A stretch of DNA of 64,000 nt, taken from assembly GCA_963813535.1 (NCBI GenBank), contig CAWEZH010000002.1:1088001-1152000 (forward strand). Direction: 5' to 3'. This DNA is from an uncultured Chloroflexia bacterium (lineage in GTDB: Bacteria; Chloroflexota; Limnocylindria; Limnocylindrales; CSP1-4). The notes beneath the pieces were generated by a model, which made no database searches, was not told the origin of the DNA, and was given only the letters and a program-made list of their open reading frames with translations. Both the position numbers and the translations under genes were made by a program. Position 1 is the stretch's first letter. Each line of letters starts with the position of its first letter. This document shows, piece after piece, positions 29,477 to 44,524 of the stretch.

Positions 29477-29498
29477 TACGTCCTCGGCGACTTCCAGC

Positions 29499-29606: not shown

Positions 29607-29801
29607 ATGGAACTTGTCGTGCCCATCGTCTCCGCGCTGGTCGGCGTGAGCGCCGCGTTCTTCCTCACGGTCGGGCTCTACGACGTGGTGCCCGCGGCGT
29701 GGACGCAGGTGCTCCGCGGTCGCGGCCGCACGGCGTCCGCGCTCGCGAATGCTCGCTATCCGTTGATGCCCCGGACGATCCGCCAGACGCCGCTCGACTG
29801 A
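29607..29801 (+). CDS. small membrane hypothetical protein (64 aa)
   Basis: TAGCGT -10-like hexamer just before ATG; hydrophobic MELVVPIVSALVGVSAAFFLTVGLY. Confidence 0.55.
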   Translation: MELVVPIVSALVGVSAAFFLTVGLYDVVPAAWTQVLRGRGRTASALANARYPLMPRTIRQTPLD

Positions 29802-29837
29802 AGTCCGGCGGCGATCCCGGATCAAGCTCGAGGGATC

Positions 29838-29913
29838 TGGCGTCCCCGGCAGGATTCGAACCTGCGACCTTGCGCTTAGAAGGCGCCTGCTCTGTCCACT
29901 GAGCTACGGGGAC
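29838..29913 (-). tRNA. tRNA-Arg(TCT)
   Basis: GTCCCCG TA GCTC AGTGGACA GAGC A GGCGC CTTCTAA GCGCA AGGTC GCAGG TTCGAAT CCTGC CGGGGAC G CCA. Confidence 0.96.
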
Positions 29914-30062
29914 GCTGCCAGCGCCTCAGTATGGCGCGGGCTACGACCGACAGCAGGCGGCGATCATCCAGGGGCTCGTACTCAATGACCTGTGGGCGCT
30001 CGACCCGGAACAACGGGTCGGGCGCTACATGCGCCTCCGAGCCGGCCCGATAATCTTGCGGA

Positions 30063-31043
30063 ATGGTCGCCGATCGCGCTGAGGGCCAGTTCTATCCTCC
30101 GATCGAACCGTACGAGTCCGGCATGCTCGACGTCGGGGACGGCCAGTCGATCCACTGGGAGGTTTCCGGTCATCCGACAGGCAAGGCGGCGGTCGTCCTC
30201 CACGGCGGGCCGGGAAGCGCGAGCAGCCCGGGCCGCCGTCAGTGGTTCGATCCGCAGCGGTACCGCATCGTCCAGTTCGACCAGCGTGGCTGTGGGCGGA
30301 GCACGCCGCATGCCGCCGATGCGACCACGTCTCTGTCGAGCAACACGACCCATCACCTGCTCGCCGACATCGAGCGGCTGCGTGAGCACCTCGGGGTCGC
30401 ACGGTGGCTCGTCGCGGGCTGGTCGTGGGGTGTGACCCTGGGTCTCGCCTACGCCGAGCGATACCCGCAACACGTGAGCGAGATGGTCCTCGGGTCGATC
30501 GTGATGACCAACCGTGCCGACGTGCGCTGGTTCGCCACCGACGCTGGTCGATTCTTTCCGGAGCAGTGGGCAGCATTCAGAGCCGGCGTCCCGCCCGAGG
30601 ATCGGGAGGGTGACCTGGTCGCCGCGTACGACCGACTCCTGAACGGGCCATTCGACCCGGCCGTCCGGCTCCAGGCCGCTCGAGACTGGGTCGCCTGGGA
30701 AGATGCGGTCCTCTCACTCGACGACGGCTATGTCGTGCCGAACCCTCGCTACGCGGACGAACGGTTCACGATCGCCTTCGCCCGCCTCGTCACCCACTAC
30801 TTCTCGCACGCGGCGTGGCTCGAGGAGGACGAGCTCCTCCGCAACGCCCCGCGACTGGTCGGCATCCCGGCCGTCCTGATCCACGGCCGTTTGGACATCG
30901 CCGGGCCACCGGATATCGCCTGGCATCTCGCGCATGCGTGGCCGGACGCGGAGCTGCATCTCATCGCCAGTGGCCACACCGGCAGCGCCGACGCCGACCG
31001 CATCATCCGCGAGTCGACCGACCGGTTCGCGGCGAAACCGTGA
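30063..31043 (+). CDS. pip: prolyl aminopeptidase (proline iminopeptidase)
   Basis: YPPIEPY, HGGPG, FDQRGCGRS, GWSWG, HGRLD. Confidence 0.92.
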   Translation: MVADRAEGQFYPPIEPYESGMLDVGDGQSIHWEVSGHPTGKAAVVLHGGPGSASSPGRRQWFDPQRYRIVQFDQRGCGRSTPHAADATTSLSSNTTHHLLADIERLREHLGVARWLVAGWSWGVTLGLAYAERYPQHVSEMVLGSIVMTNRADVRWFATDAGRFFPEQWAAFRAGVPPEDREGDLVAAYDRLLNGPFDPAVRLQAARDWVAWEDAVLSLDDGYVVPNPRYADERFTIAFARLVTHYFSHAAWLEEDELLRNAPRLVGIPAVLIHGRLDIAGPPDIAWHLAHAWPDAELHLIASGHTGSADADRIIRESTDRFAAKP

Positions 31044-31280
31044 CAGACCGTCACGGCTTGCCGGGACGAGCCCGGAGGAAGTTGTCATCCTGCGCGGAGT
31101 TGTCGAGTCGGCCGACGGCAACGAGATCCGGCTTCGGCCTCATCTGGGAAGTCCCCAGTCACTTGCGATACCCACGACAGACGTGCTCTATGAAGAGCAG
31201 GACCCCAAGCATCATGTCGCGATGGTGATGGTGCGCGGGACTGCACCCCTGAAGGTGTCCTGTCGATAAGGGCGGATCGG

Positions 31281-31520
31281 TTGCTGCGTCCGGCACGGCC
31301 GTCACGGTGGTCGGAGGCCGAGATCGAGGCTTGTGAGAAGCAAGCCCGCGAGAACGCCATCCAATACTGCATGTACTGGTACAGGGTGTCACGGGAGACT
31401 GCAGAGCACGTCGCGGACGATTGGGCCGACTACTACGCCCGCGTGTGCCGCTTCGGCTTTACCCCCGATTCCAATCCGTACGGGAACCAATGGCCCGGGT
31501 TTGCCCAGGGTTGGGGCTAG
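31281..31520 (+). CDS. hypothetical protein
   Basis: 79-aa ORF with aromatic/Cys-rich, non-shadow composition; no recognisable motif. Confidence 0.4.
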   Translation: MLRPARPSRWSEAEIEACEKQARENAIQYCMYWYRVSRETAEHVADDWADYYARVCRFGFTPDSNPYGNQWPGFAQGWG

Positions 31521-31611
31521 CGAAAGGTGGGCGACAGTGAGGCCATTTCCGAACCGACCCACATGCCATGCCGATAAGGTTGGCGTAAGCGCCGCTAGCT
31601 AGCCTGTCGGT

Positions 31612-31679
31612 ACCCCGGCTCCGCGTCCGGGACCTTCGATCCCGCTTCGCGGCCAGACGAGCCCGGAGCGATCGGGGTG
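31612..31679 (+). ncRNA. island hairpin element copy R1 (candidate ncRNA or recombination site)
   Basis: ccccggctccgcgtccgggaccTTCGATCccgc-ttc-gcggCCAG..; TAGCCT 6 nt upstream. Confidence 0.55.
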
Positions 31680-31709
31680 TCAGGAGGACGCGAGTAGGAT
31701 GGGGGCGCG

Positions 31710-32516
31710 ATGCCCCGCCCCTCGACACCGGAAGACGCGATGCGCGGCTTCCTCTCGGGCGAGGACCCGGGTCTCGCCCGCTTTCGTCGCGTCATGCGGC
31801 GGCTGCCCGACGGACCCCACTGCAAACTCTGCGCGGCGCCCTTCGAGGGTCCCGGGGGCGCCGTGCTGCGTCACGTAGGGTTCGCCCGCTTCCCCGGGAA
31901 CCCGGACATCTGCGGCTGGTGCATCAAGGAGCTCAACAAGGGCGGGGTCTTGGGCGCCGAGATCCCGGTGAGCCTCCTGTTCGCCGACATCCGCGGCTCC
32001 ACGGGCATCGGCGAGCGATCGAGCCCCACGGAGTTCCGCGCTTTCCTCGACCACTTCTACCGGCTCTCCTCGAAGGCGATACTCGATCACGACGGGATAG
32101 TCGACAAGTTCGTGGGCGACGAGGTCATCGGCCTCTTTTTCAGGGGGATCAGCGGGCCAGAACACTCGGCCGCCGCCATCGCGGCCGCTCGCGCACTGCT
32201 TGATGCTGTCGGGCGCGCCGATGCAGGCGATAGCGGGCCCATCCCCGTCGGTGCGGCCGTGCACACCGGAGACGCGTTTGTCGGCTCGACGGGAGCCGGG
32301 GGAGCGGTGAGTGACTTTACGGCGCTCGGCGACGTGGTGAACACGACCGCTCGTCTCGCGAGCGAGGCGGCCGCTGGGGAACTCCTCGTGTCGATCGAGG
32401 CGGCAAGGGCAGGGGACTTGGACACGCCCTCCTTGGAGCACCGGACGCTCAGCGTCCGCGGCCGGTCCGACGCTGTAGAGGTCGTCGCACTGCGATCGTC
32501 CGCCACACCGGGCTAG
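31710..32516 (+). CDS. class III adenylate/guanylate cyclase with N-terminal CxxC..CxxC ribbon
   Basis: CKLC..CGWC; LFADIRGST, DKFVGDEV, GDVVNTTARL. Confidence 0.9.
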   Translation: MPRPSTPEDAMRGFLSGEDPGLARFRRVMRRLPDGPHCKLCAAPFEGPGGAVLRHVGFARFPGNPDICGWCIKELNKGGVLGAEIPVSLLFADIRGSTGIGERSSPTEFRAFLDHFYRLSSKAILDHDGIVDKFVGDEVIGLFFRGISGPEHSAAAIAAARALLDAVGRADAGDSGPIPVGAAVHTGDAFVGSTGAGGAVSDFTALGDVVNTTARLASEAAAGELLVSIEAARAGDLDTPSLEHRTLSVRGRSDAVEVVALRSSATPG

Positions 32517-32701
32517 ACCTGCCCAGAGAGCAATGCGGCTGGCGCGTCGCGGCTCGACGAGCCTCGTCCATGCTGAGGGTCAGTTCCACGCGCCTGGCGC
32601 GTACTCCGGCTTCGATCGCTCGGCGGCCGGTACCGCGCCGGGAGTCATCCTTACCTATGTCGAGCGATTGACAGCCCGGTGCCTCCCGTACACTCGGCTC
32701 C

Positions 32702-33412
32702 GTGTCCGAACCGGCGACTCCAGAGGGCTCGGCTGATGCCACCAACGAGGAGCGCGCTCTTGAAGAGCGGCGTCGTCGTGACGAGCGAGTGCGGACCGTA
32801 CAGACGATGCTTCTCTTCGCCTTCGTGGGGGCGGCCATCGCCATCTTCATCGCGGCGTTGGTTTGGCTTGGGGTCCGATTCATCGGCGAGGCGCTCGTGC
32901 CCGCGGCGCTCATCGCCGCGATCGGCTTCCTCCTCGGTGAGGTCGTCCGGCTGGCGTTCGGAGAGATCCGGTCGAGTCGGGACGAGGCGCGCCTTCGCGT
33001 GCGCGAGGCGGAGGAGCGAGCACGAGCGTGGCGGCTCGCCCTCCTCGCGGACGCGCAGCGGCTGGTGGAGCGCGAACTGGATGCGATGCGGGCCCAAATC
33101 AACGGCGACACCCCGCCGGATCGTCCACGGCGGGCGACATACAGGCGGATCGACCGACTGGAGGCCGGCTCGAGGATACGCAACGAGCTTGAGGCGCTCG
33201 CGACAAGGGTTTATCAGCCGGAGAAGGCCGGAACGAGGGACCAAGAACTCTTGACGGAACTCAACTTCAGCGAAGATTGGATGACCACTGTGCTCCGCGT
33301 CCTGGAGGAACGCACCGTAGACAGTCAGTGGCCGAGTCGACTGGAGACCGTGGAAGTCGAGGTACCAAGAAACTACCAGGGATATGACGGGTTCAACGAT
33401 CCTCCGGACTAA
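32702..33412 (+). CDS. hypothetical membrane protein (2 TM + helical domain)
   Basis: Two hydrophobic segments then a charged helical region. Confidence 0.65.
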   Translation: MSEPATPEGSADATNEERALEERRRRDERVRTVQTMLLFAFVGAAIAIFIAALVWLGVRFIGEALVPAALIAAIGFLLGEVVRLAFGEIRSSRDEARLRVREAEERARAWRLALLADAQRLVERELDAMRAQINGDTPPDRPRRATYRRIDRLEAGSRIRNELEALATRVYQPEKAGTRDQELLTELNFSEDWMTTVLRVLEERTVDSQWPSRLETVEVEVPRNYQGYDGFNDPPD

Positions 33413-33531
33413 CGGCACTCACGTCACCGCCCCACCGTGACGGCTCGCGGCGATAGACAAGCGTTCGGATCGCTCCCTACGTAGGGACCTGGGCCCCTCG
33501 CTGGCAGTCGGTAGCTCGTCGCCTCGAAATC

Positions 33532-33596
33532 GCCCCGGCTCCGGTCCCGGACCTTCGATCCCACCTCGGTGGCCATTCCGTCCGGGCCGACGGGGC
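33532..33596 (+). ncRNA. island hairpin element copy R2
   Basis: gccccggctccggtcccggaccTTCGATCccac-ctcg-gtggCCA..tccgggccgacggggc. Confidence 0.6.
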
Positions 33597-33694
33597 ACCG
33601 CTTGGGCTTTCTGGTCGCCCAGTTCGTGCGACGTCGTACCCAACGACAGGCTCCGGCTCTGCCGGGGCCTTGTTGTCGTGAAGCGTTGGCTGAT

Positions 33695-33871
33695 CTAGAC
33701 CGAGCGGCCGACCGTGCTCAGGATCGTGCTGACCTGGCTACCCAGAACGACGAGGGCGATGATGGCGATGATGGCGATAAGCGCGAGGACGAGGGCATAT
33801 TCGGCGAGGCCCTGGCCTTCGTCGTCGCGGCGGAGCGACCGGATGAGCGAGTAGACGTGCGTCATGGGCAT
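33695..33871 (-). CDS. flp: Flp/Fap type IVb pilin
   Basis: Not in the ORF track (58 aa): MPMTHVYSLIRSLRRDDEGQGLAEYALVLALIAIIAIIALVVLGSQVSTILSTVGRSV; G|QxxxEY Flp motif; AGGAG RBS. Confidence 0.9.
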   Translation of the reverse strand: MPMTHVYSLIRSLRRDDEGQGLAEYALVLALIAIIAIIALVVLGSQVSTILSTVGRSV

Positions 33872-33989
33872 CCCGTGGTCCTCTCTCCTGCCGGTCGCTG
33901 GCGGTCACCCTCACGCTAGCCGCGACCCCGCGAATGGGCCATCCGTACTTAGGTCATGTGCAACGACGGCCATCACGGTCGCGGCCGCT

Positions 33990-34236
33990 TTACGTTTCGA
34001 TGTCGAAGCTGTCCGGCGACACGTCCAGCCATTGGGCGATCGCCGCCTTGGCAGCTTCCAGGGCGTCCCGGCGACTCGTCGCACTTACCGCCAGCCACGG
34101 TAGGGGCGTCGACGTACCAGCGGCCGTCCTGGGCGGTCGAGATGCGATATCCGGGTCGGTCGCCTCGAGCGATCATCCGCCGGCTCGCCTGGGCCACTGC
34201 CTCCCGTTGACGCGCCTCGCTCATCCGTCGTGCCAC
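33990..34236 (-). pseudogene. small HicB-like protein, +1 frameshift in a G run at ~34103
   Basis: Removing one base gives MARRMSEARQREAVAQASRRMIARGDRPGYRISTAQDGRWYVDALPWLAVSATSRRDALEAAKAAIAQWLDVSPDSFDIET*. Confidence 0.6.
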
Positions 34237-34281
34237 CCGGCTTAGTCTGGGTGAAGCACCGTCACCCTAGCTTGTCAACCA

Positions 34282-34352
34282 GCCCGGCTCCGGTCCCGGA
34301 CTTGCGATCCCGGTGTTCCCCCCGCCGGGCAGCTCGTCCGGGCCGTCCGGGC
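34282..34352 (+). ncRNA. island hairpin element copy R3
   Basis: gcccggctccggtcccggacttGCGATCccggtg..cgccgg..tccgggccgtccgggc; TAGCTT upstream. Confidence 0.6.
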
Positions 34353-34418
34353 AATCTATTGGGCTCATCGCGGTGCGAAGATGCCTCCGTCGGCGCAAGC
34401 AATCGGAGGTCGGGCGGC

Positions 34419-34673
34419 ATGAGCGACCAGCAGGCGGGGCCGAACGTCCGGCGCCTCGCGTTCTTCGAGGAACTCAGCGGCATCACCTTTCAGTTCGGCG
34501 AGGAGCCGGACGGCCAGTGGACGGGCAGGGCGGACAGCAAACAGTGGACCGCGGCCCACGTCGAACGCGGACCCGACGCGGAGGCCGCCGGCGCGAAACT
34601 CATCGCCTGGCTCGAGGAGAGCGGCGAGTTCCTGCCCGAGCCGCCCGACACCTTCTGGCCGTGGGCGCGATGA
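34419..34673 (+). CDS. hypothetical protein (84 aa)
   Basis: GGAGG RBS; MSDQQAGPNVRRLAFFEELSG.. Confidence 0.6.
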   Translation: MSDQQAGPNVRRLAFFEELSGITFQFGEEPDGQWTGRADSKQWTAAHVERGPDAEAAGAKLIAWLEESGEFLPEPPDTFWPWAR

Positions 34674-34712
34674 CCCGCCCGCGGGCCGCGCGAAGTTCGC
34701 CTAAGGCAGTAT

Positions 34713-34920
34713 CTAGGGTCGGACGCGCTTCTCTCGCTGCGTGGCGATCCAGGCCCGGCTCGCCTCCCAGTACGCCGACCCGCGCTCGATGCGGTCCCGC
34801 GCTGCCTGGACTTCCCACGCCGCGATCCAGGCGTCGGCCGTCGCCTCGGTCACGCTCCCGTCCTCGGCCCGAGGGCCCCGGCCAACGACTCTCTGGAGAA
34901 ATGGCCGGGCCTCTTCATCG
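34713..34920 (-). pseudogene. Trp-rich small hypothetical gene or fragment
   Basis: ..TEATADAWIAAWEVQAARDRIERGSAYWEASRAWIATQREKRVRP*; possible GTG start at 34853. Confidence 0.4.
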
Positions 34921-35043
34921 CTCCGCACCGGTCGTTGGTCCCGGTCCGGGCCGACCGGGTGGGGCGGGAGCCGGACCCGGCCGATGTCGAAAGCGTCGGG
35001 CGCGACTGCGAGCCAGTCGATATCAGCGCCCGTGCCTGTCCAC

Positions 35044-35457
35044 TCAGACCCGATCGGCCACGCTAACGCCACCGGGGCTAGGCCGGACGAACCCCGCATT
35101 GAGCGGATGCACCGTGACTCGTGCGTCACCCAACAGGTGCGCTTTCTCGCGAAGCTGCGCCACGACCTCGTCCGTCGGATCCCCGTACACGTCGATCGAC
35201 TGCAGGCGAACCAGATCAACGAAGTTCCGGAACGCCGGGCCGGCCACCCGGAAATGGGTCGCGAGCGACGCGGCGTCGGCATGAACGTGGACCACTGAGA
35301 TCGTCCTGTGATCCTCGTCGAGATACGCGGCGTACGAGATGATCCGTGGCTCATCAGCCTCGACGAGGTCCACTAGTTCGGTGATCCGCTTGGTCAGCTC
35401 ACCGAGACGGCCCTCGACGATCTCGGAGCGGTCGACGTATACGATCGGACCAGACAC
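35044..35457 (-). CDS. ABM-like dimeric alpha/beta barrel hypothetical protein
   Basis: GGAGG RBS; VEADEPRIISY, HADAASLATH, IDVYGDP. Confidence 0.7.
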   Translation of the reverse strand: MSGPIVYVDRSEIVEGRLGELTKRITELVDLVEADEPRIISYAAYLDEDHRTISVVHVHADAASLATHFRVAGPAFRNFVDLVRLQSIDVYGDPTDEVVAQLREKAHLLGDARVTVHPLNAGFVRPSPGGVSVADRV

Positions 35458-35530
35458 AGCGACCTCCGTGCGCGCGATCGGACGTCACCAGAACGCGTGC
35501 GTGTAGAGGCATACTCCTACACCCACCCGA

Positions 35531-35595
35531 CCCGGCTCCGGTCCCGGACCGTCGATCCCGCTCCCGCGGCCAGTCGGTCCGGGCCGACCGTGGGC
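35531..35595 (+). ncRNA. island hairpin element copy R4
   Basis: cccggctccggtcccggaccGTCGATCccgc-tccc-gcggCCAGTCggtccgggccgaccg. Confidence 0.6.
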
Positions 35596-35682
35596 AAGAC
35601 CCAGGCGCAGCATCCCCTCCTGCAGGCCTCGCGTAAGAGCCGTTTCCCGCCGACGACTTCGATATGTCTTTTCGAGCCCGCC

Positions 35683-36051
35683 TTACGCGCTCTCTACAGC
35701 GAGGGGTTCGAAGCTATATGTCCCAGTCCAATGCCATAAGCCGTCCGAATCCGCCGTAACGTTGGCGTGGGCCTCGAATCCAGCGAACTTCCCCGTCCCT
35801 CCCGAGAACGTCGCCGTCCCCTTATTGGCGGCAAGATCGAGTACGACGTGGCCCGTCGCAGTGTTGGCGGCTCCCGCGTCGAGGACGACGTCGGTGTCAA
35901 GAGTGCCCTCGCTCGCCGCCTCGGCGTAGATGACCTTCGCACCCGCTCCGATCTCGTCGAGGTTCGAGGAGGTGATCGTACAGAAGTCACCGGCCCGGCC
36001 CGTGTATTCCGAGCACTCTTTGGTGACCTGGAGATCCCCGCTGCGAGCCAT
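35683..36051 (-). CDS. hypothetical beta-barrel protein (allene-oxide-cyclase/dirigent-like)
   Basis: AAGGAGG RBS; TKEC..FCTITSSN, FSGGTGKFAGF. Confidence 0.65.
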   Translation of the reverse strand: MARSGDLQVTKECSEYTGRAGDFCTITSSNLDEIGAGAKVIYAEAASEGTLDTDVVLDAGAANTATGHVVLDLAANKGTATFSGGTGKFAGFEAHANVTADSDGLWHWTGTYSFEPLAVESA

Positions 36052-36319
36052 AGCGACCCTCCTTCTCGCAGTCCGTCGCCAATCAGCGCGACACCGGGAC
36101 TCTACACCCGGTGCGTTGTGGGCCAGCCACGCGGATCTTGTCGCCCGCCATGACAGCCGAGGCAATCCCCTACCTCGTTTGGAGACATCTGCCTTCAGCG
36201 GCGCGACACTGTGCAGACGTCTCACGTCGAGATGCTCTCGGGCCGCGCAAGAAGGACTAGGAGGCCCAGCAGGCGGCGGAGTCGCTCGTAGCCCAAGCCG
36301 AGCGACTCGGCGATGCGTG

Positions 36320-36620
36320 TCAGTAGATGCCCACGAACAACCGGCGCGGCGGTTCGTCAGCATCGAGGCCGGCGCTGAGGTCGGAACTGACCGGGTCGCC
36401 CGCGTCCCGCGGATCGATCACAACATGGTGCAGGCGCCAAAGGGCCTCCTGCTTTGGGTCGGTCGACCAAACGTGCGAAAGACGTACCTGAGCTCCAAGC
36501 TGGGACACGTACTCGACTGTCATGACGAGCCACGGGTGCTCCCACGCACCGCTTGGCAGGAGCAGATCGCTGACCTTGACGTATAGCTCCTCGTCTACGC
36601 CGGCAGCAATCGCTGCGAGG
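36320..36620 (-). pseudogene. 5'-truncated hypothetical gene fragment
   Basis: Protein-like open frame ..DEELYVKVSDLLLPSGAWEHPWLVMTVEYVSQ..FVGIY* with no obvious start/RBS. Confidence 0.3.
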
Positions 36621-36729
36621 TTAGCGAGACGACGTGACGGCTACGTGGTCGGACTATCCTCCTGGCCAGTGGGCCATGGTGAGCATCCGGACGCAGCGCA
36701 GCATGCGGCCCGTCGCCAAGGAGTCTCGA

Positions 36730-37464
36730 ATGGGCACCCGCGGGGTCCTGTCCCTGATCATGTGCTTGCCGTTAGCGGGCTGCATGAACAGCACACCGAA
36801 CCCGCCAGCCGGCCCAACGGCCGCGGCGATCGCGACGGTCGCGACGACGGCTTCGGTGCCCACCGCCGAAGCGACACCGACCACGACACCAGTGACGCCG
36901 AAGCCCGATCTGACCGCGGAGCCGACACCTCGGTGGTCGAAGCTCGAGCGGGCGATCCGGGACAACATTCGTGACGACGCGGCGGTGGGTTGCGCGCCGA
37001 GACGCCACGATCTCCCGCCGGGCACGGTCGCGGCCGTCGAGTGCAGGCCCGGCGTGGCCCTAGTCAGTCGTGTCGGCTTCTACCTCTTCGCCTCACCGGA
37101 CGACGCTTTCGCTGTCTACCTCGACCGCGTCAAAGAACAGGGCTTGGCGCTGAACACCGAGCGAGGCCTTCGCGGCTGGGAACGCGCCATGTACATCTGT
37201 AGCGACGAGCAGTGCGCGGAGCGCGACGCCGGCTTCGTAAATAGCGACGGCTACGCCAACTATCGATCCGTCATGGGCGCCATGTACATCGGCGTCTTGG
37301 GCACACGTGACGACATCGAAGACCTCAGGGGTTGGGCATGGGAGAGCCGCGAAGAATGTCCGCCGGGGCCGGATACATGCGCGGTTCCAGAAAGCCCGAG
37401 CCTCTATTGCGACGGCTCGCGCGTCGCCGCCGACGCCTCGTGCGTTGAACCCGTCAGCGCCTAG
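36730..37464 (+). CDS. hypothetical lipoprotein (Cys-containing extracellular domain)
   Basis: AAGGAG RBS; lipobox LAGC, P/T linker. Confidence 0.7.
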   Translation: MGTRGVLSLIMCLPLAGCMNSTPNPPAGPTAAAIATVATTASVPTAEATPTTTPVTPKPDLTAEPTPRWSKLERAIRDNIRDDAAVGCAPRRHDLPPGTVAAVECRPGVALVSRVGFYLFASPDDAFAVYLDRVKEQGLALNTERGLRGWERAMYICSDEQCAERDAGFVNSDGYANYRSVMGAMYIGVLGTRDDIEDLRGWAWESREECPPGPDTCAVPESPSLYCDGSRVAADASCVEPVSA

Positions 37465-37740
37465 GCGACCGGGCCCCCGCTGGACTGGAGTAGCCGCTAG
37501 GGCACGCAGATTTCGATGCCGACCTTGTATGCGCACCCACTGGATGACCAGGCCGCTAGAGACAGCAAGAACATGGCCGGCAGCGTCAGCAGCGTGAGCA
37601 GTCCGGCTACCAATGTCAGCCCGATAGCGGTGCGGTGCCCGGCACCGGAAGCCCCCGCGAGCGGGCCGGGCCGGCGTCGTCGCCGGCCGATGACCCTCGG
37701 GTCTACCTAGCGCGTTGAGGAGGCTCCACCTTGGCTGCGC

Positions 37741-38761
37741 CTACGGCACCCTCGTCGTCTCAACCGACACATCAAACCACCCGACATCGGGGGCATAGTC
37801 CGTGGCAACCACCCGACCATCCTGGATCACCGACGCCCATACGTAGAAGGGCCGGTGCTCCAGGCTCATGCCGATCGTGCCAGTGGGCGTGTCCGACTCA
37901 AAGAAGAAGCGGCCATGAAACATTGCTTGAAAGCGGGTCTCGCCAACGTAGTCAGGGTCGCGTCCCTGTAGCGTCGTTCGACCAGTGTGGAGATCGGTGA
38001 TCCACGTCCGATAGTGGTCCCAGCCCGCCACTGTCTCGGGCGTGTTGTCCTTCCCGACCCGCCGGTCGGGGACGCCGTCGCGATCGTCATCAAAGACAAC
38101 GCCATACGCGATCCACTGCTCGGTGGGATCCACGTCGGGTGGGAATTTGGGGAGTGTGAAATATAGCACCCGCCTCATACGAGCCCGCACCTCCTGGATG
38201 TCGACCCATGGGAAGTCATCGGATCCGGTGTCGCCCGACGGATCGATGTGTCGGCCTGGCGGTGGCGCTAGGTAGCGTCGGTCCCCGAGATCTCTGCTTC
38301 ACAAGGATCGGCACGAGGATCGCGCCTCCGGCGGGCTCGGTGCGAACCGGCGCGGGCCAGTCCTCCTTCAGACTCGCCTCGGTCCACAGGATCGGCGTGG
38401 GCGTGGGGCTGGGCGTCGCCGTAGGCGTCGCGCTGGGGCCAACCTGGGCAGACTCGCTGGGATCCGCGCTTGGCGTCGGGCTCGGACCGCCGACCGCTGA
38501 TGGGTCGGGCCGGTTCACGTAGTACAAGCCGCCGAGCGCAAGCACGGCGATGACCGCGGCCGCAACGACGCGGGCCGGCAGCGTCATGGTCGGGAGCCTC
38601 GCCGGGGCTGACCACCAGGCGAACCTACGGGGCTGCGGGCGCCCAGCGGCCACGGCCATGATCCGCTGATAGAGATCGTCCTCGCCGCCGACGTCGGCGG
38701 CGCGTTCTCGAAGCGCCGCGGCGAGGTCACTGGCGACGCTGTCCTGGCTGCGCCTAGTCAT
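37741..38761 (-). CDS. membrane-anchored anti-sigma-like protein, frameshifted at ~38270
   Basis: Overlaps the sigma gene stop (ATGA); N-terminal helix, TM, P/T linker (38216 ORF) continuing in the 37741 frame. Confidence 0.6.
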
Positions 38762-39321
38762 GCTTGAGTCTCCAGAGCCCGATCTAGGGATTTGCGTGCG
38801 GCGTGAAGTCGCGACTTCGCCGTGCCCACCGGGATGCCGAGCCTATGAGCGATCTGTTCGAGCGGCTGATCCAGGAGGTGGTGCATGGCGAGGATCTGGC
38901 GATCTGCGATGGACAGTCGGTCGAAGGCCGCAAGGACGGCGGCTCGCTCCAGCGCCGCCGGGCCGGGATCGGCCTGCTGGAGGTCGGCGCCTTCGAGGGT
39001 GATCTCCCGCACGCGGCCTCGATTGCGGAGGTGGTCGCGGCAACGATTGGCGAGCACAGTGTTCAGCCAGGCGCTGAAGCGGCGATCGTCCCGCAGCCGA
39101 GGGAGATTGAGCCAGGCTGAAACGAAGGCCTCCTGCGTCGCATCGCGGGCATCGGCCTCATTGCGCAGGATCGACCGGGCCAGGCGCAGCATGTCGGGCA
39201 ACCGGGCCGCCACAAGGGCGCCGAACGCCTCCGCGTCGCCGCGACGGGCTCGCGCCACGAGCGCGTCGTCAGCGGCGTCAGACCCGTTGTGCACGGTCTC
39301 TGTCAGTGCCACGGGAAGCAT
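38758..39321 (-). CDS. ECF RNA polymerase sigma factor
   Basis: LVARARRGDAEAF, DARDATQEAF, FSAWLNTVLAN, LGIPVGTAKSRLH. Confidence 0.92.
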   Translation of the reverse strand: MLPVALTETVHNGSDAADDALVARARRGDAEAFGALVAARLPDMLRLARSILRNEADARDATQEAFVSAWLNLPRLRDDRRFSAWLNTVLANRCRDHLRNRGRVREITLEGADLQQADPGPAALERAAVLAAFDRLSIADRQILAMHHLLDQPLEQIAHRLGIPVGTAKSRLHAARKSLDRALETQA

Positions 39322-39395
39322 GGTCGCGGCGGGAAAGGTTCCATGCTAGGTACGACGTCTGGCGAGTCGCCCGGGTTCGACCTGATTTGTGTTGT

Positions 39396-39529
39396 GTAGG
39401 GCGTCGACGTATCAGCGGCCGTCCTGACCGGGCATGAGGCGATATCCGGGGCGGTCGCCTCGAGCGATCATCCGCCGGCCAGCCTGGGCCGTGGCCTCCT
39501 GTTGTCGCCTCGCTCGTCCGTCGTGCCAT
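39396..39529 (-). pseudogene. second, truncated copy of the HicB-like gene
   Basis: Degenerate nucleotide duplicate of 34100-34236 (MARRTSEA.., MIARGDRPGYR); W codon changed to TGA at 39412-39414. Confidence 0.65.
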
Positions 39530-39703
39530 GCGGTCAGTGTGGGGTGAGCGCGACACCAAGGCTGTCACCACCCCCAGGCGCGTGCCGCGCTTGTACGCTT
39601 GTAGCACCTCCTATTCGGCGGTCGTACTCATTTTCTGACACGGGTGGAGCCGGAGAGTGGTAACGCTGCCTTCCATTTCGCGTCATTGGATCGGATGGCG
39701 CTC

Positions 39704-40186
39704 ATGGAACGATCGAGACCCACGCAACGTCGGTCCCGTCGAAGGTGGGTGCCGTGGCTCGTCGCGGCCGCGATCGGTCTCGGCCTGATTGGTTACGGCT
39801 TCACATACGCTCCGCCGCCGACATCGCTCAGCTTGACCGGGAAGGTCTGGCAGTGGACTGCGTACGGCGATGATTCCGGCACGGTCCCAATCGAGGATCC
39901 TGAGCGCTACACCATCGTCTTCAACGAAGATGGGACCGCGGTCGTCACGGCAGACTGCAATCGATCGCCGTGGAGTTACACGATCGCAGGGTCCTTCCTA
40001 CGACCCACGATATGGCTGCAATCGCACGCGGAAGAATGGTCCCCGTGCGCGCCAGGCTCTAGGGCTCAGCTCTTTGTTGATCACCTGTGGCCGACCGACA
40101 CATTCAGTGTCTCGGCCGATCGCCTGGAACTCGATCGGGACCACTACGGAATCAGTTGGGCCCTCACGCTCAAAGCGTCTCCCTGA
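39704..40186 (+). CDS. META (HslJ-like) domain protein
   Basis: TM; LTGKVWQW..YTIVFNEDG....ADCN. Confidence 0.75.
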   Translation: MERSRPTQRRSRRRWVPWLVAAAIGLGLIGYGFTYAPPPTSLSLTGKVWQWTAYGDDSGTVPIEDPERYTIVFNEDGTAVVTADCNRSPWSYTIAGSFLRPTIWLQSHAEEWSPCAPGSRAQLFVDHLWPTDTFSVSADRLELDRDHYGISWALTLKASP

Positions 40187-40253
40187 CGGCTCGAGCATTC
40201 GACCGGCGGGACATGGCGACACGTGTGGGACAACGGCCAACAGGTAGGGTGTC

Positions 40254-40332
40254 ATCGCCCCGGCCCCGGTCCCGGACCTTCGATCCCGGCTATCCCCCCG
40301 CCGGTCAGTCGGTCCGAGCCAACCGAGGCGAT
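40254..40332 (+). ncRNA. island hairpin element copy R5
   Basis: atcgccccggccccggtcccggaccTTCGATCccggc..gccggTCAGTCggtccgagccaaccgaggcgat; TAGGGT upstream. Confidence 0.6.
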
Positions 40333-40346
40333 CGGGAGGGTCCGCG

Positions 40347-40703
40347 ATGCTCCGAGCCGAGGAAGCCTACGAGGGATACGAGCGGGCGTGGAACGAGCCC
40401 GGGCGGGCGGCTGCTCTTCTCGAAAGGGTCTGGGCGCCGGAGGGTGTCTACGCCGACGACGACGTGCCAGACGGTGTCGTCGGGCCCGTGGCGCTCGCCG
40501 CCCTCATCGTCGAGACACATAAGGCGCTGCCGGGCTTCCGGGTCTGGGCGACGAGCGGCCCGCGGATGCTTGCGGAGCGCATGGCGATCACCTGGGCGGG
40601 GGAAGGAGGCGACCCGCCGATCCCGCAGGCCGGCACCGATGTCATCGAGTTCGGCCCTGACGGCCGGATCACCCGCATCACGGACGTGCTCGACATCGAC
40701 TGA
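40347..40703 (+). CDS. SnoaL/NTF2-like protein
   Basis: YERAWNEP, VWAPEGVYAD, GTDVIEFGPDGRI. Confidence 0.8.
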   Translation: MLRAEEAYEGYERAWNEPGRAAALLERVWAPEGVYADDDVPDGVVGPVALAALIVETHKALPGFRVWATSGPRMLAERMAITWAGEGGDPPIPQAGTDVIEFGPDGRITRITDVLDID

Positions 40704-40857
40704 CCAGGCCGGCGGAGACAGTCCGGCCTGGTGACGGCATCCAGGCGCAGATGGCGAGGATGGAAGCCAGAGGTATCACCGATACGGACGCGATGCTCGA
40801 GGACGCGGCCTGCTTTCTCCTTGGAGTCTAGTGTGCGGGCCGCGGCCGCTGGCCTGT

Positions 40858-40930
40858 CAGCGCCTCGGCTCCGGTCCCGGACCTTCGATCCCGCTTCGGC
40901 GGCCAGTCGCTCCGGGCCGACCGGGCACTG
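40858..40930 (+). ncRNA. island hairpin element copy R6
   Basis: cctcggctccggtcccggaccTTCGATCccgc-ttcg-gcggCCAGTCgctccgggccgaccgggc. Confidence 0.6.
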
Positions 40931-41069
40931 CGCCTCAGCCAAACTTCGACCTAGACAATGCAAGCGGGCTATCGACTTTCGGCGCGGCGCCGACACGTGG
41001 CCGATGACGCGAAAGAGGCGCGGATAGACAGGGGGTCTAAGCTGGTCGCACGTCACGGGGGACGTCGCG

Positions 41070-41934
41070 TTGCCGTCAAAGGAAACGCAGACGGGCGTGG
41101 GGATACTCATCGGCTTGGTCGTCCTCATCGCCCTCGCTCAACTTGTTATCGCCGCTCCGGCCTGGTCAGGCCCGGGACCTCGACCGGCGATCTTGGTCCC
41201 CCCCGTAGCCGGCGTCACGCCCGAGACGCCCACACCCGGGCGTGTTCCGTCCACTCCAGCGCCGGCCACTCCAGCCCCTGGCGTGGCCGTCGTTGAATTG
41301 ACCCGGTCCACAGCGGACGCGGGACCGATTGATCTGCAAGCTGGCGGATCATCGTCACCGCCAGCGCCGACTCCGAGCGGCTTGGCGACGCCTGCCCCCT
41401 TGTCGTCACCGCCAGCGCCGACTCCGAGCGGCGTCGCGACGCCACCCCCCGGCGAGGTTTCCTTCCCGACTTCGCAGCCGACGCCGCCCGCGGCCTCGCC
41501 CACGCCCGACCCGACGCGGCCGCCATCGCCGCCACCGACTGCAGCACCGACCCACCAGCCCACGCGGGCGCCCACACCGCCGCCAACGCCGGCGCCGACG
41601 CCCAACCCAACGCCGGCGCCCACGCCCGCCCCAACACCGGATCCGACGCCGGCCCCGACACCGGATCCAACGCCGCCGCCGACGCCCGACCCAACGCCGG
41701 CACCGACACCCGATCCGACGCCGGATCCGACGCCGGCCCCGACACCGGATCCAACGCCGCCGCCGACGCCCGACCCAACGCCGGCACCGACACCCGATCC
41801 GACGCCGGATCCGACGCCCGACCCGACGCCGGCCCCGACACCGGATCCAACGCCGGATCCGACACCCGACCCCAACGCCGGAACCGACACCCGATCCAAC
41901 GCCGGATCCCACGCCCGAGCCGCAGCCCGGGTAA
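41070..41934 (+). CDS. membrane-anchored Pro/Thr-rich (PTPD/PTPA repeat) protein, probable +1 frameshift at ~41870
   Basis: N-terminal TM; 12-nt coding tandem repeats 41570-41920; the repeat continues to a stop at 41934 in another frame. Confidence 0.6.
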
Positions 41935-42248
41935 CGTCGGTCCCCAGAACTGGGCCCGCTAGCCTTTCGACCGCCGCGGGTCCGGTCGACCGATGGTGTT
42001 CTGCAACCCTGGCGCGCGTACATCGCCCGGTCACCGGGGGCGCGTTGACGAAGCCATCGGTGATTGGGTCGGTTGCCCGGTGCGGCTAGGAAGTCGGAGT
42101 CATCGTCCGGGCCGTGGGTCTAACTTGACAGTGAGGCTTGCCGCGGTCGTCGTCCCAGGAGCGAGTCGCCACCGATGATTGCCAAGCTCGGGGTACGGTC
42201 GCAAGATGACCGTCCGTCGCAGTCCGAACCACTGGGAGGAGCGGAGAG

Positions 42249-42638
42249 ATGGCGCATCCGAACGAGGATCTGGTCCGTCGCGGTTTTACGGCGTTCGGGA
42301 CCGGAGACATCGCGACGCTAGGCGAGTTGTTCGCCGACAACATCGTCTGGCATGTCGGTGGACGCAGCCCGATCACCGGGGATTACAAGGGCAAGGAACA
42401 GGTCTTCGGGTTTTTTGCCCAGCTCGCCGAACGGGCTGGGGGGACTTTCCGCCTTGACATCCACGACGTGCTGGCGAACGACGAGCATGTGGTCGCGCTG
42501 GTCAAGGCGACCGGGGAGCGCCAAGGGAAGACGCTGAACAACAACGGAGCGCAGGTCTTCCATGTGCAGGGTGGAAAGGTCACCGAGGTGTGGTTCCACC
42601 CGGACGACCAATACGCCGGCGACGACTTCTGGAGTTGA
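42249..42638 (+). CDS. SnoaL/NTF2-like protein
   Basis: MAHPNEDLVRRGF, WHVGGRSPITGDYKG, HDVLANDEH. Confidence 0.9.
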   Translation: MAHPNEDLVRRGFTAFGTGDIATLGELFADNIVWHVGGRSPITGDYKGKEQVFGFFAQLAERAGGTFRLDIHDVLANDEHVVALVKATGERQGKTLNNNGAQVFHVQGGKVTEVWFHPDDQYAGDDFWS

Positions 42639-42655
42639 CCCGGACCGAGCCAACT

Positions 42656-42712
42656 CTCGATCCCGGCTGCCATCGCCGACGGCCGGTCAGTCAGCCCGGG
42701 CCGACCGGGGCA
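42656..42712 (+). repeat. 3'-partial hairpin element copy R7
   Basis: Similarity begins at TCGATCccggctg..cggccggTCAGTCagcccgggccgaccggggc; left arm absent. Confidence 0.55.
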
Positions 42713-42787
42713 TTCATTGAGCAGTTAACAACGGGCACATCGCAGGGTGGCCCACTCACGGGAGCACGCCGCGTTGAGCCGGACATT

Positions 42788-42826
42788 TTAGAAGGCGCCT
42801 GCTCTGTCCACTGAGCTACGGGGACG
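42788..42826 (-). repeat. displaced 5' half of tRNA-Arg(TCT) (att-like repeat)
   Basis: Identical to 29876-29914; tRNA positions 1 to the end of the anticodon loop, with conserved upstream AGCGCCTCAG and a -10-like TATGCT. Confidence 0.9.
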
Positions 42827-42894
42827 TCGTTAGCGCCTCAGCATACGCACGAAAACCGCCGGATCGACCTTGGCTCGTTGACGACCATCCGTGA

Positions 42895-43563
42895 TCAGGT
42901 CCTCTTGAATGTCCCGTCGCACGTCCGGTTCGTGGCATCAAGCACGTGAGTGAAGATCTTCTTGTTGTTATCCATGTCGTTATGCGGGACCCCGGGGTCC
43001 TCAAAGACGTGGCACGCGCCGCCATCGAGCCGCGATGAGTTGTTCGAGACGACACCATCGGTCCGGCTGTAGATCGTGGTCCAGTAAACGTGGGTCGGCG
43101 TGTCGTCACCGGCATTGAGACTGCGCAGGAATGACCTCGACGGGCACATCTGGCCACCCTGCGACGAGAACAGCAGGCATGTCCTGAGTAGCCCGTACTG
43201 CGGGGTCCCAAGTGACACGTAGGTGTCGACTCTGGAGGTGCCGATCGTCTTGATGAAGTATCGAGCGCTCAGACCGCCCATGCTCTGCGCCACGATGTCG
43301 ACGTCATCCCAGCCTTTGCTGGTGATGAAGTCGCGGATCGCCTGGGCGTTCTTGATGTTGTCCTGGCCCGGCAACCGAATCGCTTCTGCCTGGCGGCCGG
43401 CGAGCCTGAAGCGGTCGATCATCTCGGCCCATGTCGACGGGCTACCTCGCCACCCATGGACGAGCAGCACCGGATCGTTCTTGGCGGCTGCCGCCGTGCT
43501 CGGCGCCATCGCGACTGCCAGGATTCCCAAGATCGGCACCAGGATCCACCGCGTCGCGCGCAT
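42895..43563 (-). CDS. secreted small lipase/esterase (Bacillus/Streptomyces LipA-like)
   Basis: Signal peptide; PVLLVHG, AQSMGG, SLGTPQYG, DGVV, H. Confidence 0.85.
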   Translation of the reverse strand: MRATRWILVPILGILAVAMAPSTAAAAKNDPVLLVHGWRGSPSTWAEMIDRFRLAGRQAEAIRLPGQDNIKNAQAIRDFITSKGWDDVDIVAQSMGGLSARYFIKTIGTSRVDTYVSLGTPQYGLLRTCLLFSSQGGQMCPSRSFLRSLNAGDDTPTHVYWTTIYSRTDGVVSNNSSRLDGGACHVFEDPGVPHNDMDNNKKIFTHVLDATNRTCDGTFKRT

Positions 43564-43744
43564 GTCGGCCCCTCCCCATTCGACGGTGAGCAGTACCGCG
43601 GAGGGTACCCGCACCCCGGCGTGGGTGGAATAGCACAGGTGACGCCACAGCGTGGCGTCGACGTTTCCGGCGGTACAGGCGTTCTAGGCCGCGCCGCTGA
43701 CGGGGTACGCTACGGGCGTTGGGATCAAGAGCCGGGGAGGACCC

Positions 43745-44413
43745 ATGACCGACGAAAGCGCGCGCTCACGGCGCGCAGTCCTTGCTGCCGGTCTTGGTGG
43801 CGTAGCCGCGGCAGCAACCGCGGCCGTCATACGGCCTGCCGCGGCCCTCGGCGCCAACGGCGACAACGTCGTGCTCGGACAGGCAAATACGGCGACGGCG
43901 GCGACGGCGATCCAGAACACGGGGACGGCCGATCCGGACACGCTCGTGGTCGATAGCCAATCGGGCTTCGCTGTCATCGCGAGGAGCGAGGACGGAAGCG
44001 GCATCGAGGGCCAGGCCCCGAACGGGCTGGGCGTATCCGGACTCGGACAGGTCGGGGTCGTCGGGGAGGGAACTGAATCGGGCGTTCGGGGCATCAGCTC
44101 CGGTAATGGGATCGGGGTTTTCGCGACGACGGAGACCGGGCTCGCACTCCTCGTCGACGGCAAGGTGGGCCTGACGCGGAGCGGCAGGGTCTCAGTCGCA
44201 CGAGGCAAGGGATCCGTCGACATCACCATCCCCGGCGGCATCACCAGTCGGACGGTCGTCATGGCGACCCTCCAACGGTATCGCACCGGGGTCGCGATCG
44301 CGGGTGTCAACCTTAACTGGCCTAGCGCCGGCAAGGCCCGGATCTATCTCACGAAGATCCCGTCGACCACGACGACGACGCCTGTCGCGTGGATCGCTAC
44401 GGAACTCCCGTAG
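43745..44413 (+). CDS. Tat-exported hypothetical protein
   Basis: SRRAVL twin-arginine signal; Gly-Val repeats; GGGAGG RBS. Confidence 0.75.
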   Translation: MTDESARSRRAVLAAGLGGVAAAATAAVIRPAAALGANGDNVVLGQANTATAATAIQNTGTADPDTLVVDSQSGFAVIARSEDGSGIEGQAPNGLGVSGLGQVGVVGEGTESGVRGISSGNGIGVFATTETGLALLVDGKVGLTRSGRVSVARGKGSVDITIPGGITSRTVVMATLQRYRTGVAIAGVNLNWPSAGKARIYLTKIPSTTTTTPVAWIATELP

Positions 44414-44524
44414 CGTTTCGCCGCCTCGCGCCCTTGGACGCAGCGAGCGCGTCCCCGGGCACTGCGATGCCGTTCCTCTGGTCGGACCCGACGTAGCCGC
44501 CGCGGGGCTTACCTGCGGCGCGGG

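Follow-up and report, generated by a model that had tools for sequence, protein, structure and literature searches.

A polar palindromic repeat lies at synteny breakpoints in integrated islands of soil Chloroflexota

The stretch of DNA analysed here (the window, 64 000 nt from an uncultured Chloroflexia bacterium) carries a family of short structured repeats within an integrated island, all pointing the same way, and the question it raises is what such a family does. A preliminary description had offered two answers: independently promoted small RNA genes, or recombination sites analogous to the attC sites of integrons. The island is 12.9 kb long and ends at tRNA-Arg(TCT) on one side and at a copy of the 5′ half of tRNA-Arg(TCT) on the other. 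Islands of this kind are small phage-like or satellite-like elements, and the remains of such elements, inserted at tRNA or RNase P RNA genes. The relevant features are as follows.

29838–29913, − strand: tRNA-Arg(TCT), the anchor of the island
31612–31677, + strand: copy R1, 62.8 bits, of the 'R1-type' subfamily, whose middle helix has compensatory changes and whose bulged base is G
33532–33596, + strand: copy R2, 85.9 bits
33973–34236, − strand: small HicB-like gene, apparently frameshifted, divergent to R3
34281–34352, + strand: copy R3, 71.4 bits, with a long C-rich apical hairpin
34713–34889, − strand: member of a family of genes of about 72 aa (..TADAWIAAWE..YW.AGWDWIA.QR..RVRP) that recurs in arrays
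34925–34960, + strand: remnant of a 3′ arm and decayed centre, 16.4 bits, E 0.13, with an exact 3′ arm at 34943–34959
35529–35593, + strand: copy R4, 83.4 bits
40179–40256, + strand: conserved 5′ leader of R5 (..CAACGGCCAACAGGTAGGGTGTCA..) with the TAnnnT hexamer, 75–77% identical to the leaders of other copies
40257–40328, + strand: copy R5, 74.1 bits
40347–40740, + strand: cassette in which a decayed 3′ half-element comes after a 118-aa gene, 90% identity to L041 18123–18571
40862–40926, + strand: copy R6, 85.4 bits
42637–42710, + strand: degenerate distal copy R8, 26.8 bits, E 9e-4
42788–42835, − strand: distal att repeat, the duplicated 5′ half of tRNA-Arg(TCT) up to the anticodon loop, 35/35 bases identical

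Six full copies, all on the + strand, had been described, and all six were recovered: a pattern search gave six matches where 0.09 were expected, and covariance model R1 scored them at 62.8–85.9 bits. Scanning positions 28000–51000 with this model yielded nothing further above noise, and motif searches over the whole window found no additional 5′ motif. Of the two copies described as 3′-partial, that at 34925–34960 is indeed a remnant, whereas that at 42637–42710 (R8) proved to be a degenerate full copy. Within the window the copies are indeed confined to the island, but the 3.28-Mb genome holds others: the model found 11 matches in it (E up to 1), seven of them in one island, and further copies lie at C2:276743, C2:1232769 and C2:1825087.

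The element is a palindrome of about 65 bases, or a unit of about 105 nt with its leader, and consists of four parts: a leader of about 40 nt, a 5′ arm of about 20 nt, an internal loop around a variable tip hairpin and a 3′ arm of about 18 nt. Matched copies span 63–84 nt, and the tip hairpin varies in length. The conserved internal loop reads TTCGATCC/CCAGYC, and the stem base, (C)CCCGG/CCGGG(G), is present in all six window copies and in 63 aligned copies. The 3′ arm pairs with the 5′ arm except at a bulge and a small internal loop; in both, the surplus bases lie on the 5′ arm, the bulge being a T (or, in the R1 type, a G) and the internal loop reading CTC/A. This bulge, noticed from the start, is kept in both the main type and the R1 type, which are subfamilies separated by compensatory changes. 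The leader lies on one side of the element only, and the hexamer reported within it is real: TAnnnT, with variable middle bases, precedes the stem by 8–9 nt in most of the 14 copies aligned. Paired cells amount to 91.2% of 1091, compared with 88.3% in shuffles (none of 500 reached the observed value), and 22 cells changed on both sides where 5.5 were expected. The variable apical hairpin covaries as had been claimed, pair 50–97 being CG 47 times and GC 8 times, and pair 51–96 GC 49 times, CG 3 times and AU once. The basal helix holds 15 U:G and no U:A pairs. The covariation is modest and stems from few events; z-scores of single folds are mostly weak. Copies from one genome resemble each other more than they do copies from other genomes.

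The family is restricted to a soil group of Chloroflexota (record titles name Chloroflexia or Limnocylindrales) and is patchily spread, being found in 12 of the 49 genera of the taxonomic family. At all 17 loci where an anchor could be identified, it is a tRNA or RNase P RNA gene, and the neighbouring copies are directed away from it. These loci are the window, L031, L033, L034, L035, L037, L036/L042, L041, L047, L044+L050, L032, L049+L043, the source genome's own C2:276743 and C2:1825087, L175, L179 and L182. One inverted copy, at L041 12004, is the sole exception in orientation. Solo copies in the source genome are placed 601 and 501 nt 3′ of tRNA-Asn and tRNA-Arg(TCG). The genes around the copies are randomly oriented while the copies stay co-oriented; copy orientation is set by the integration anchor, not by the genes. 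At the distal end of the island, R8 abuts the stop of a SnoaL-like gene and ends 78–80 nt before the tRNA fragment, a geometry that recurs in L169 and L044 (87 and 96 nt). L169 is a circular 9.7-kb IMG/VR contig with a 127-nt terminal overlap. Its single copy lies 87 nt from an attP made up of 40 nt of tRNA-Met, and its Xer-like integrase is intact.

Comparison of flanks shows that the copies are synteny breakpoints, with the DNA on the two sides assorting independently. Among 112 distinct copies, ten pairs share the downstream flank only, six pairs (four independent groups) share the upstream flank only and no pair truly shares both. In all 16 pairs, which were drawn from related genomes and are not all independent, the flank opposite the shared one is unrelated. 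Homology begins 1–5 nt past the 3′ end in seven of the ten downstream-sharing pairs and stops 0–7 nt before the 5′ end in four of the six upstream-sharing pairs. The R5 cassette of the window is found, at 90% identity, in a different array at L041 of genome G181, where the 118-aa gene is followed directly by a clean 3′ half-element; the R6 cassette matches L043 of the same genome (74%), and the two G181 counterparts are 185 kb apart. Likewise, C1 and C3 of genome G022 share a cassette (95%) with ends that are sharp at the elements, and cassette ends lie at the element 3′ end in L033/L038 and R5/L041. Single copies can themselves be composite: the chimeric copy L048:7928 combines a 5′ arm of the main type with a 3′ arm of the R1 type. 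In soil-metagenome run X1, a 250-nt contig runs through 40741–40870 and then 40266–40386, so that R6 is joined back to R5 (121 letters on the shorter side, 0–1 differences per piece), as would be expected of a hybrid arising through a circle, duplication or unequal crossover. In run X5, two contigs part from the window after 35590, in R4. In L041/L048, L091/L101 and the X1 joint, the switch lies between the 5′ loop and the tip; in L033/L038, L042/L043, the L175 pair and R5/L041, it lies between the tip and the 3′ end. Crossovers in at least two parts of the element are what short-homology recombination would give, unlike the single crossover point of the integron.

The best reading of these observations is that the repeats are cis-acting DNA sites, not genes, and are specific to this lineage. 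As to what the sites do, we consider it an evenly balanced call that they are DNA-level, polar, hairpin-forming cassette boundaries used in the recombination of island modules, with an attC-like role outside any integron. Cassettes would be gained, lost and swapped through recombination within the two conserved arms, and a hairpin or cruciform may be the form that is recognised or that promotes exchange; it is these two features, exchange in the arms and such a hairpin, that would make the element attC-like in role. The driver could be either a tyrosine recombinase acting in trans, or short-homology recombination or template switching. Points that weigh against this reading include the absence of a recombinase tied to the repeats, the spread of crossovers over the element, the modest covariation and the promoter-like spacing of the hexamer.

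Explanations at the level of transcription fare less well. Multicopy small RNA genes, the first of the earlier proposals, now seem highly improbable. The promoter-like hexamer, a stable fold and the C-rich tip loops of some copies speak for them, but the two strands fold about equally (summed MFE of the six copies −221.8 on + versus −240.9 on −), and the wobble pairs, once read as G-U on the + strand, show no bias: across 61 distinct copies, 43 wobble cells are of G:U type on the given strand and 47 are C:A or A:C, that is, G:U on the other strand. R5 even folds far better on − (−44.8 kcal/mol versus −30.9 on +), where three G>A changes in its 3′ arm make G:U pairs rather than the C:A mismatches seen on +. 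Only two tRNAs passed the Rfam gathering thresholds (tRNA-like, Y RNA and 6C included), and at E up to 10 across 31500–43000 no family was matched, the best score on a copy being sul1 with 20.9 bits against a threshold of 36.2. The copies match no Rfam family, as first stated, and the suggested likeness to Y RNA or tRNA, with its allusion to Ro60, found no resemblance in these scores. With home-made gene calls in decayed islands, which may blur a link to transcription, a co-oriented gene start lies within 400 nt downstream of 18 of 55 copies, the upstream gene presents a co-oriented end at 25 and a start at 21, and copies occupy gaps independently of gene orientation (14/37 convergent, 12/43 divergent, and 12/38 and 15/45 for the two tandem types). 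Random gene orientation and the lack of wobble strand bias together argue against small RNA genes, promoters or terminators as the main role. A broader form of the idea is that the unit punctuates transcription, its TAnnnT promoter leader and hairpin serving as a terminator, an insulator, a 5′ stabiliser or an outward promoter toward attP and int in the circle, with recombination a by-product of repetition. The fixed distance of the hexamer looks promoter-like, Shine-Dalgarno sequences and starts follow R1 and R5 by 19–33 nt, a gene 3′ end lies within 150 nt of 33 of the 55 copies, and in L169 a string of genes on one strand is followed, after 12 nt, by the single copy, with attP and int directly beyond it. 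The counts of neighbouring starts and ends, the equal occupancy of gap types, the lack of a T run and of a wobble bias, and the polarity of copies amid genes lying both ways nonetheless make this unlikely. An intrinsic terminator was rejected on the upstream ends and starts, the equal gap types and the fact that no T run follows the hairpin at any window copy.

Among explanations at the DNA level, a true site-specific system is rather doubtful. Here, folded-strand sites, a new analogue of attC, would be recombined by integrases of family X (Xer-like) or family P (phage-type), the two unrelated tyrosine integrase families found near arrays, many of whose members are broken or decayed; integrase-less arrays would be the counterparts of CALINs. 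The attC-like anatomy, the polar arrays starting near an integrase, the cassette ends at the element 3′ end and a cargo of mostly unique small ORFs (275 proteins, few in recurrent families) all favour it, and if both strands are foldable, in line with the unbiased wobble pairs, two mirror-image crossover points would be expected, as seen. However, none of 101 genomes of the genus has an integron integrase (TIGR02249 above cut-off), and P0001 reaches only 56 bits against a cut-off of 265, aligning to model positions 5–185 only. The same repeat is neighboured by two unrelated integrase families, the repeat is absent within 19 kb at 14 of 17 loci with a family-X integrase, AAC/GTT boxes are not visible and switch points are spread over the element. 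PF00589 genes number only two in the source genome, at distances of about 300 kb or more, and no recombinase is tied to the repeats. A fuller version of the same idea, which we would also call somewhat unlikely, is an undescribed integron-like cassette system of soil Limnocylindria-type Chloroflexota: small mobile elements that target tRNA genes or rnpB would use their Xer-like or phage-type integrases to recombine folded sites of about 65 nt, with either strand serving; a polar array of swappable genes would so build up at each anchor, and entry would take place at the copy about 90 nt from attP. A selfish, non-autonomous repeat of MITE-, REP- or PATE-like kind, inserting itself preferentially in island DNA, is very unlikely. 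It would suit a short, multicopy, patchily spread element with partial copies and with arms that are inverted repeats and look like TIRs. No target duplication was noticed in aligned flanks, viewed unsystematically; the leader is one-sided, the polarity to the anchor is strict, and the exactly one shared flank in 16 of 16 pairs is unlike independent insertions. REP and BIME elements are similarly short, GC-rich, imperfect, intergenic palindromes in many copies; the present family differs in its few copies (at most 11 matches in the genome), in one orientation per array and in its tie to integration anchors. They were rejected because a RAYT/Y1 gene (PF01797) is found in none of five copy-bearing genomes, whereas a control search matched in 6 of 14 genomes, and because seven of the 11 genome matches lie in one island, with no genome-wide scatter.

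The relation to integrons is one of role. The earlier proposal of attC-like recombination sites fits the junctions, the polar anchored arrays and the bulged hairpin, but an integron is contradicted by the missing integrase and boxes. In integrons, the R boxes of attC carry a conserved ..AAC and GTT.. at the palindrome base, and CALINs are clusters of attC without an integron integrase. Models of attC would miss the present copies, from which these boxes are absent. Further differences are the conserved unpaired loop, the one-sided leader, the location of arrays inside tRNA- or rnpB-integrated islands with att repeats, genes divided about evenly between the two directions, crossovers at more than one position and no visible strand preference. 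As with attC arrays and CALINs, co-oriented imperfect palindromes lie between genes that are mostly small, unrelated and often unannotated, arrays also occur without a nearby working integrase and a cassette recurs in different arrays. The order of basal helix, small internal loop, second helix with a same-side bulged base and variable tip is the one described for attC (PMC4889954, PMC3053210). The first of these sources also defines the integron integrase by an extra domain of about 35 residues (PMC4889954).

Two phage systems invite comparison. Boundary sequences are short conserved stretches proposed to guide mosaic exchange in temperate phages (PMC3029335). Like these, our copies are module junctions in prophage-like DNA with independently assorting flanks; unlike them, they are strictly polar and form dense arrays around non-phage cargo, and their palindrome is kept by compensatory change, whereas boundary sequences are not reported as structured. 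The stoperators of Cluster A mycobacteriophages, 13-bp sites oriented with transcription, are also many co-oriented copies of an asymmetric motif in intergenic prophage DNA, and our leader (GGTAGGCTGTCA) resembles, by eye, the L5 stoperator consensus GGTGGMTGTCAAG (PMC3029335). Stoperator-type repressor sites were rejected because the orientation of the copies stays constant whichever way the neighbouring genes run; the unit is also far longer and includes a hairpin.

The repeat family is limited to one little-studied, uncultured soil lineage, and every informative pair of copies is a point of reshuffling. Outside integrons, we know of few systems in which a short structured DNA site delimits exchangeable cassettes. 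Were a recombinase to act on the present site, the integron principle would have been invented here independently, and the site is compact enough for this to be tested. Should short homology suffice by itself, the islands would offer a clear example from nature of mosaicism driven by boundary sequences, which to our knowledge has been proposed for phages and rarely seen. In both cases, covariance model R1 is of practical use as a marker with which to trace the flexible gene pool in these genomes.

Two gene families recur beside the repeats. Members of the family of about 72 aa, for which a Pfam search returned no family, lie antisense to the repeats except in one stretch of L041, which also holds the single inverted repeat copy. 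The HicB-like pseudogene of the window starts 45 nt upstream of R3 on the opposite strand, and a second, decayed HicB-like copy lies at 39400–39507. Among HicB-like homologues, the gene start is 42–58 nt from a repeat copy in five of seven cases.

A pattern search with the 5′ motif of the repeat, an imperfect palindrome of about 65 bases, gave six matches in the window, all on the + strand, against an expectation of 0.09, which bears out the multicopy, co-oriented family of the preliminary description. The six full copies (R1-R6) scored 62.8-85.9 bits with model R1, the covariance model built from them. Both additional copies that had been described as 3′-partial were also detected, one as a remnant and the other as a degenerate copy:

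34925-34960, + strand: remnant, 16.4 bits with model R1
42637-42710, + strand: degenerate copy, 26.8 bits with model R1

In a sensitive run with filters off, the rest of 28000-51000 stayed at noise level with this model and held no other convincing decayed copy; 32603-32632, suspected by eye, reached only 8.8 bits, also noise level. On folding, each copy gives a long, imperfect hairpin. Its basal helix of 5 bp leads through an internal loop (CTC/A) into a helix of 11 bp from which a T bulges. Above this helix lies a conserved unpaired TTCGATCC / CCAGYC loop, topped by a tip hairpin of variable length. Many copies have a conserved leader of about 40 nt (..CAACGGCCGACAGGTAnGCTGTCA..), and the TAnnnT hexamer noted earlier upstream of some copies was located within it.

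The 3.28-Mb genome that contains the window yielded 11 matches to model R1 at E up to 1, seven of them inside this island. Three good copies lie outside it (C2:276743, C2:1232769 and C2:1825087, on the contig of the window), so the proposed confinement to the island holds within the window but not across the genome. Within the genus, model R1 matched 13 of the 24 other genomes; in the sister family it matched none of 16, and in a family-wide draw 16 of 150 other genomes (12 of 49 genera). For a broad survey, a pattern scan of the genomes of 185,579 species was followed by model R1 on 80 loci. True copies were present in 31 of these, with record titles naming Chloroflexia, Chloroflexota or Limnocylindrales in all but one case. 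The exception, L052, is a 4.3-kb contig binned as Gemmatimonadales with copies at 920-988 and 1512-1576, two good ones (61 and 71 bits), and reflects misbinning or else a transfer beyond Chloroflexota.

The earlier impression that the repeat belongs to no known family is upheld by Rfam, which at gathering thresholds returned two tRNAs only and left the copies without a match even at E up to 10. A Y1/RAYT gene was found in none of five copy-holding genomes, and no integron integrase scored above cut-off in 101 genomes of the genus. The array would work like an attC array, yet it lacks IntI, an R-box consensus and a single crossover point, and because of these three differences we do not place it among the integrons; the comparison draws on papers on integrons and attC sites (PMC4889954, PMC3053210) and on phage boundary sequences (PMC3029335). 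Among the titles and abstracts found in open-access literature on Limnocylindria islands, Chloroflexi integrons, integron-like tyrosine-recombinase systems and Chloroflexota palindromic repeats, none describes the repeat.

The window island is bounded by a tRNA gene and a partial duplicate of it:

29838-29913, - strand: tRNA-Arg(TCT), the anchor of the island
42788-42835, - strand: exact duplicate of the 5′ half of tRNA-Arg(TCT), to the anticodon loop

The 12.9 kb between them contain every window copy, and no integrase was found there. In a congener, G024, only 1.37 kb separate the equivalents of 26887-29914 and 49773-55367, so 29914-49773 is variable DNA. Another congener, G017, repeats this arrangement at tRNA-Arg(TCT), with a 5′-half duplicate, one repeat copy and the remains of an Xer-like integrase adjoining the tRNA. 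Tandem accretion, in which each copy would be the relic of one tRNA integration, was rejected for the window because the tRNA 5′ half is present only twice; true tandem islands, such as L175, retain tRNA fragments. A class-2 lipase gene (42873-43639, - strand) is 94% identical to a G024 gene that has another chromosomal context, equivalent to a place between 104678 and 102951 on another contig (C1) of the window genome. The relocated piece is the size of a gene and is not flanked by a repeat at either end.

Arrays recur beside genes for tRNA (Lys, Met, Arg, Pro, Leu, Val, Gln, Asn) or beside the RNase P RNA gene (rnpB). The copies are directed away from the anchor in all 17 anchored loci, the window among them, on either side of the RNA gene. 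L044 seemed to break this rule until another tRNA-Pro(GGG) was located at a distance of 14 kb; one single copy, at 12004 of L041, is inverted. Two families of tyrosine integrases adjoin the arrays: an Xer-like family (X) on the 5′ side of tRNAs, broken beside the arrays first examined (L031, L033, L034), and a phage-type family (P) on the 3′ side of tRNAs or rnpB. Islands of the latter are anchored at rnpB in L032 (17643-18005, - strand) and L049 (7621-7996, + strand). C2 carries the only two PF00589 genes of the window genome, at 776 and 819 kb. Family X is common, occurring in 36 of 131 genomes of the genus (E up to 1e-40), and adjoins a tRNA in 13 of 17 loci examined; copies of 38-44 nt of the tRNA 5′ part bound its islands in seven of 10 loci tested, and the repeat is present in only three of the 17.

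The insertion pattern of family X was drawn from the window (29838-29913/42788-42835) and from L034, L174, L175, L177, L179, L180, L182 and L183. The islands are small (2.5-15 kb), the 5′ 38-44 nt of the tRNA, to the anticodon loop, are duplicated on insertion, and the integrase, which is divergent from the intact tRNA, targets at least 10 tRNA species. Several orthologous anchors from different species (L036/L042, L035/L037 and L037/L044) had no common island content past the anchor, and gains or losses of single cassettes, the gene blocks between copies, are therefore unreadable from these pairs. Contig GC skew was too flat for placing an origin or terminus. Gene-strand bias points to a switch at about 650 kb of C2, but copy orientation had no consistent link to the replication direction read from this bias; we rate this evidence as weak.

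A circular IMG/VR contig of about 9.7 kb, L169 (9828 nt, its ends overlapping by 127 nt), has an intact family-X integrase and an attP of 40 nt of tRNA-Met. Genes judged by eye from translations include capsid-like (406 aa) and tape-measure-like (567 aa) proteins and an HNH endonuclease, no large terminase or portal gene being seen in the contig; L169 is a candidate Chloroflexota phage satellite. Its single repeat copy is directed at attP from a distance of 87 nt, and the distal spacing is similar in the window island (78-80 nt) and in the tRNA-Pro island of G181, a congener (96 nt). By eye, the spacers between distal copy and tRNA fragment in the window (42711-42787) and L169 (2784-2869) have in common an 11-nt word, CACTCACGGGA, perhaps a site within attP for an integrase or an accessory protein. 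A search of IMG/VR for relatives of the L169 integrase gave L169 itself and one distant match only.

Judged from their flanking sequences, the copies are recombination junctions. When the 400-nt flanks of 112 distinct copies were compared all against all, 10 pairs were alike downstream only and six upstream only; the single pair alike on both flanks arose artefactually from two copies lying side by side. Homology began 1-5 nt past the element in seven of the 10 downstream pairs and stopped 0-7 nt short of it in four of the six upstream pairs. The cassettes of R5 and R6, neighbours in the window, lie 185 kb apart in separate arrays of G181, and in G022 a 430-nt cassette common to two arrays (95% identity) ends at elements. 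Within the elements, some pairs switch between the 5′ loop and the tip, others between the tip and the 3′ end, and the copy at 7928 of L048 is a chimera of a main-type 5′ arm and a 3′ arm of the R1-type subfamily. Among contigs of soil metagenomes, a 250-nt record runs through 40741-40870 and then 40266-40386, with 23 letters common at the joint, and two records from another run depart from the window after the 3′ end of R4 (35590). Short joints (31045>40863, 34242>40267 and 33560>35567) have fewer than 30 letters on one side and are hints only.

The repeat probably acts as DNA rather than as RNA. Paired cells make up 91.2% of the total over 61 distinct copies, and 22 cells have changes on both sides, compared with 5.5 in shuffles; the R1 subtype and the main type differ by compensatory changes with the bulge retained. 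The palindrome has thus been maintained. There are 43 wobble cells on the given strand but 47 on the opposite one, so the reading of wobble pairs as + strand G-U does not stand, and for the six copies of the window the minus strand gives slightly better folds. Genes around the copies were placed with a home-made gene caller. Within 400 nt upstream there is a co-oriented gene end at 25 of 55 copies and a gene start at 21; downstream, a co-oriented start at 18 and an other-strand gene end at 25. Occupancy of gaps is 28-38%, similar for convergent, divergent and tandem gaps, and orientation is constant among copies while genes vary. A transcriptional role, as a secondary or original function, is kept alive by the promoter-like hexamer and by the placement of the single copy in L169.

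In the simplest account, the repeat is a DNA element that acts in cis and belongs to small integrative elements of one family. It would mark cassette boundaries and serve as the exchange site, its polarity fixed relative to att and its hairpin under selection. The switch points, spread over the two conserved arms, would fit either recombination relying on 20-30 nt of identity or a recombinase using either strand.

Some cargo genes recur among the arrays:

34713-34889, - strand: ~72-aa protein (..TADAWIAAWE..ERGSAYW.AGWDWIA.QR..RVRP); also L031 8433-8657, L034 5346-5564, L035 5416-5634 and others
33973-34236 and 39400-39507, - strand: ~85-aa protein, presumably HicB-like; also L041 1962-2087, L047 13926-14042 and L048 7761-7886

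The ~72-aa family has about 20 full or partial tblastn matches in 13 array loci, and 10 called genes in eight loci cluster with it; most members are antisense to the repeats, and the window genome holds one copy only. The HicB-like label comes from motif reading. This gene is often the first past the anchor tRNA, starting 42-58 nt from the repeat 5′ end on the opposite strand in five of seven homologues, and the window copies appear frameshifted or truncated. Pfam gave no family for either protein or for five other cassette ORFs. Adenylate/guanylate cyclase-domain proteins are also recurrent cargo, with seven members in six loci (window 31710-32516, + strand; L039 6555-8042; L042 14892-16865; others). 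The longest cassette (35594-40256) contains an ECF sigma factor (38758-39321) and an adjacent 181-aa ORF (together 38216-39321, - strand), which is probably its anti-sigma factor. A repetitive ORF at 41070-42089 (+ strand), rich in proline, threonine, alanine and aspartate, has internal DNA repeats, and a related gene (74%) lies downstream of a G181 repeat copy (L043 5869-6909).
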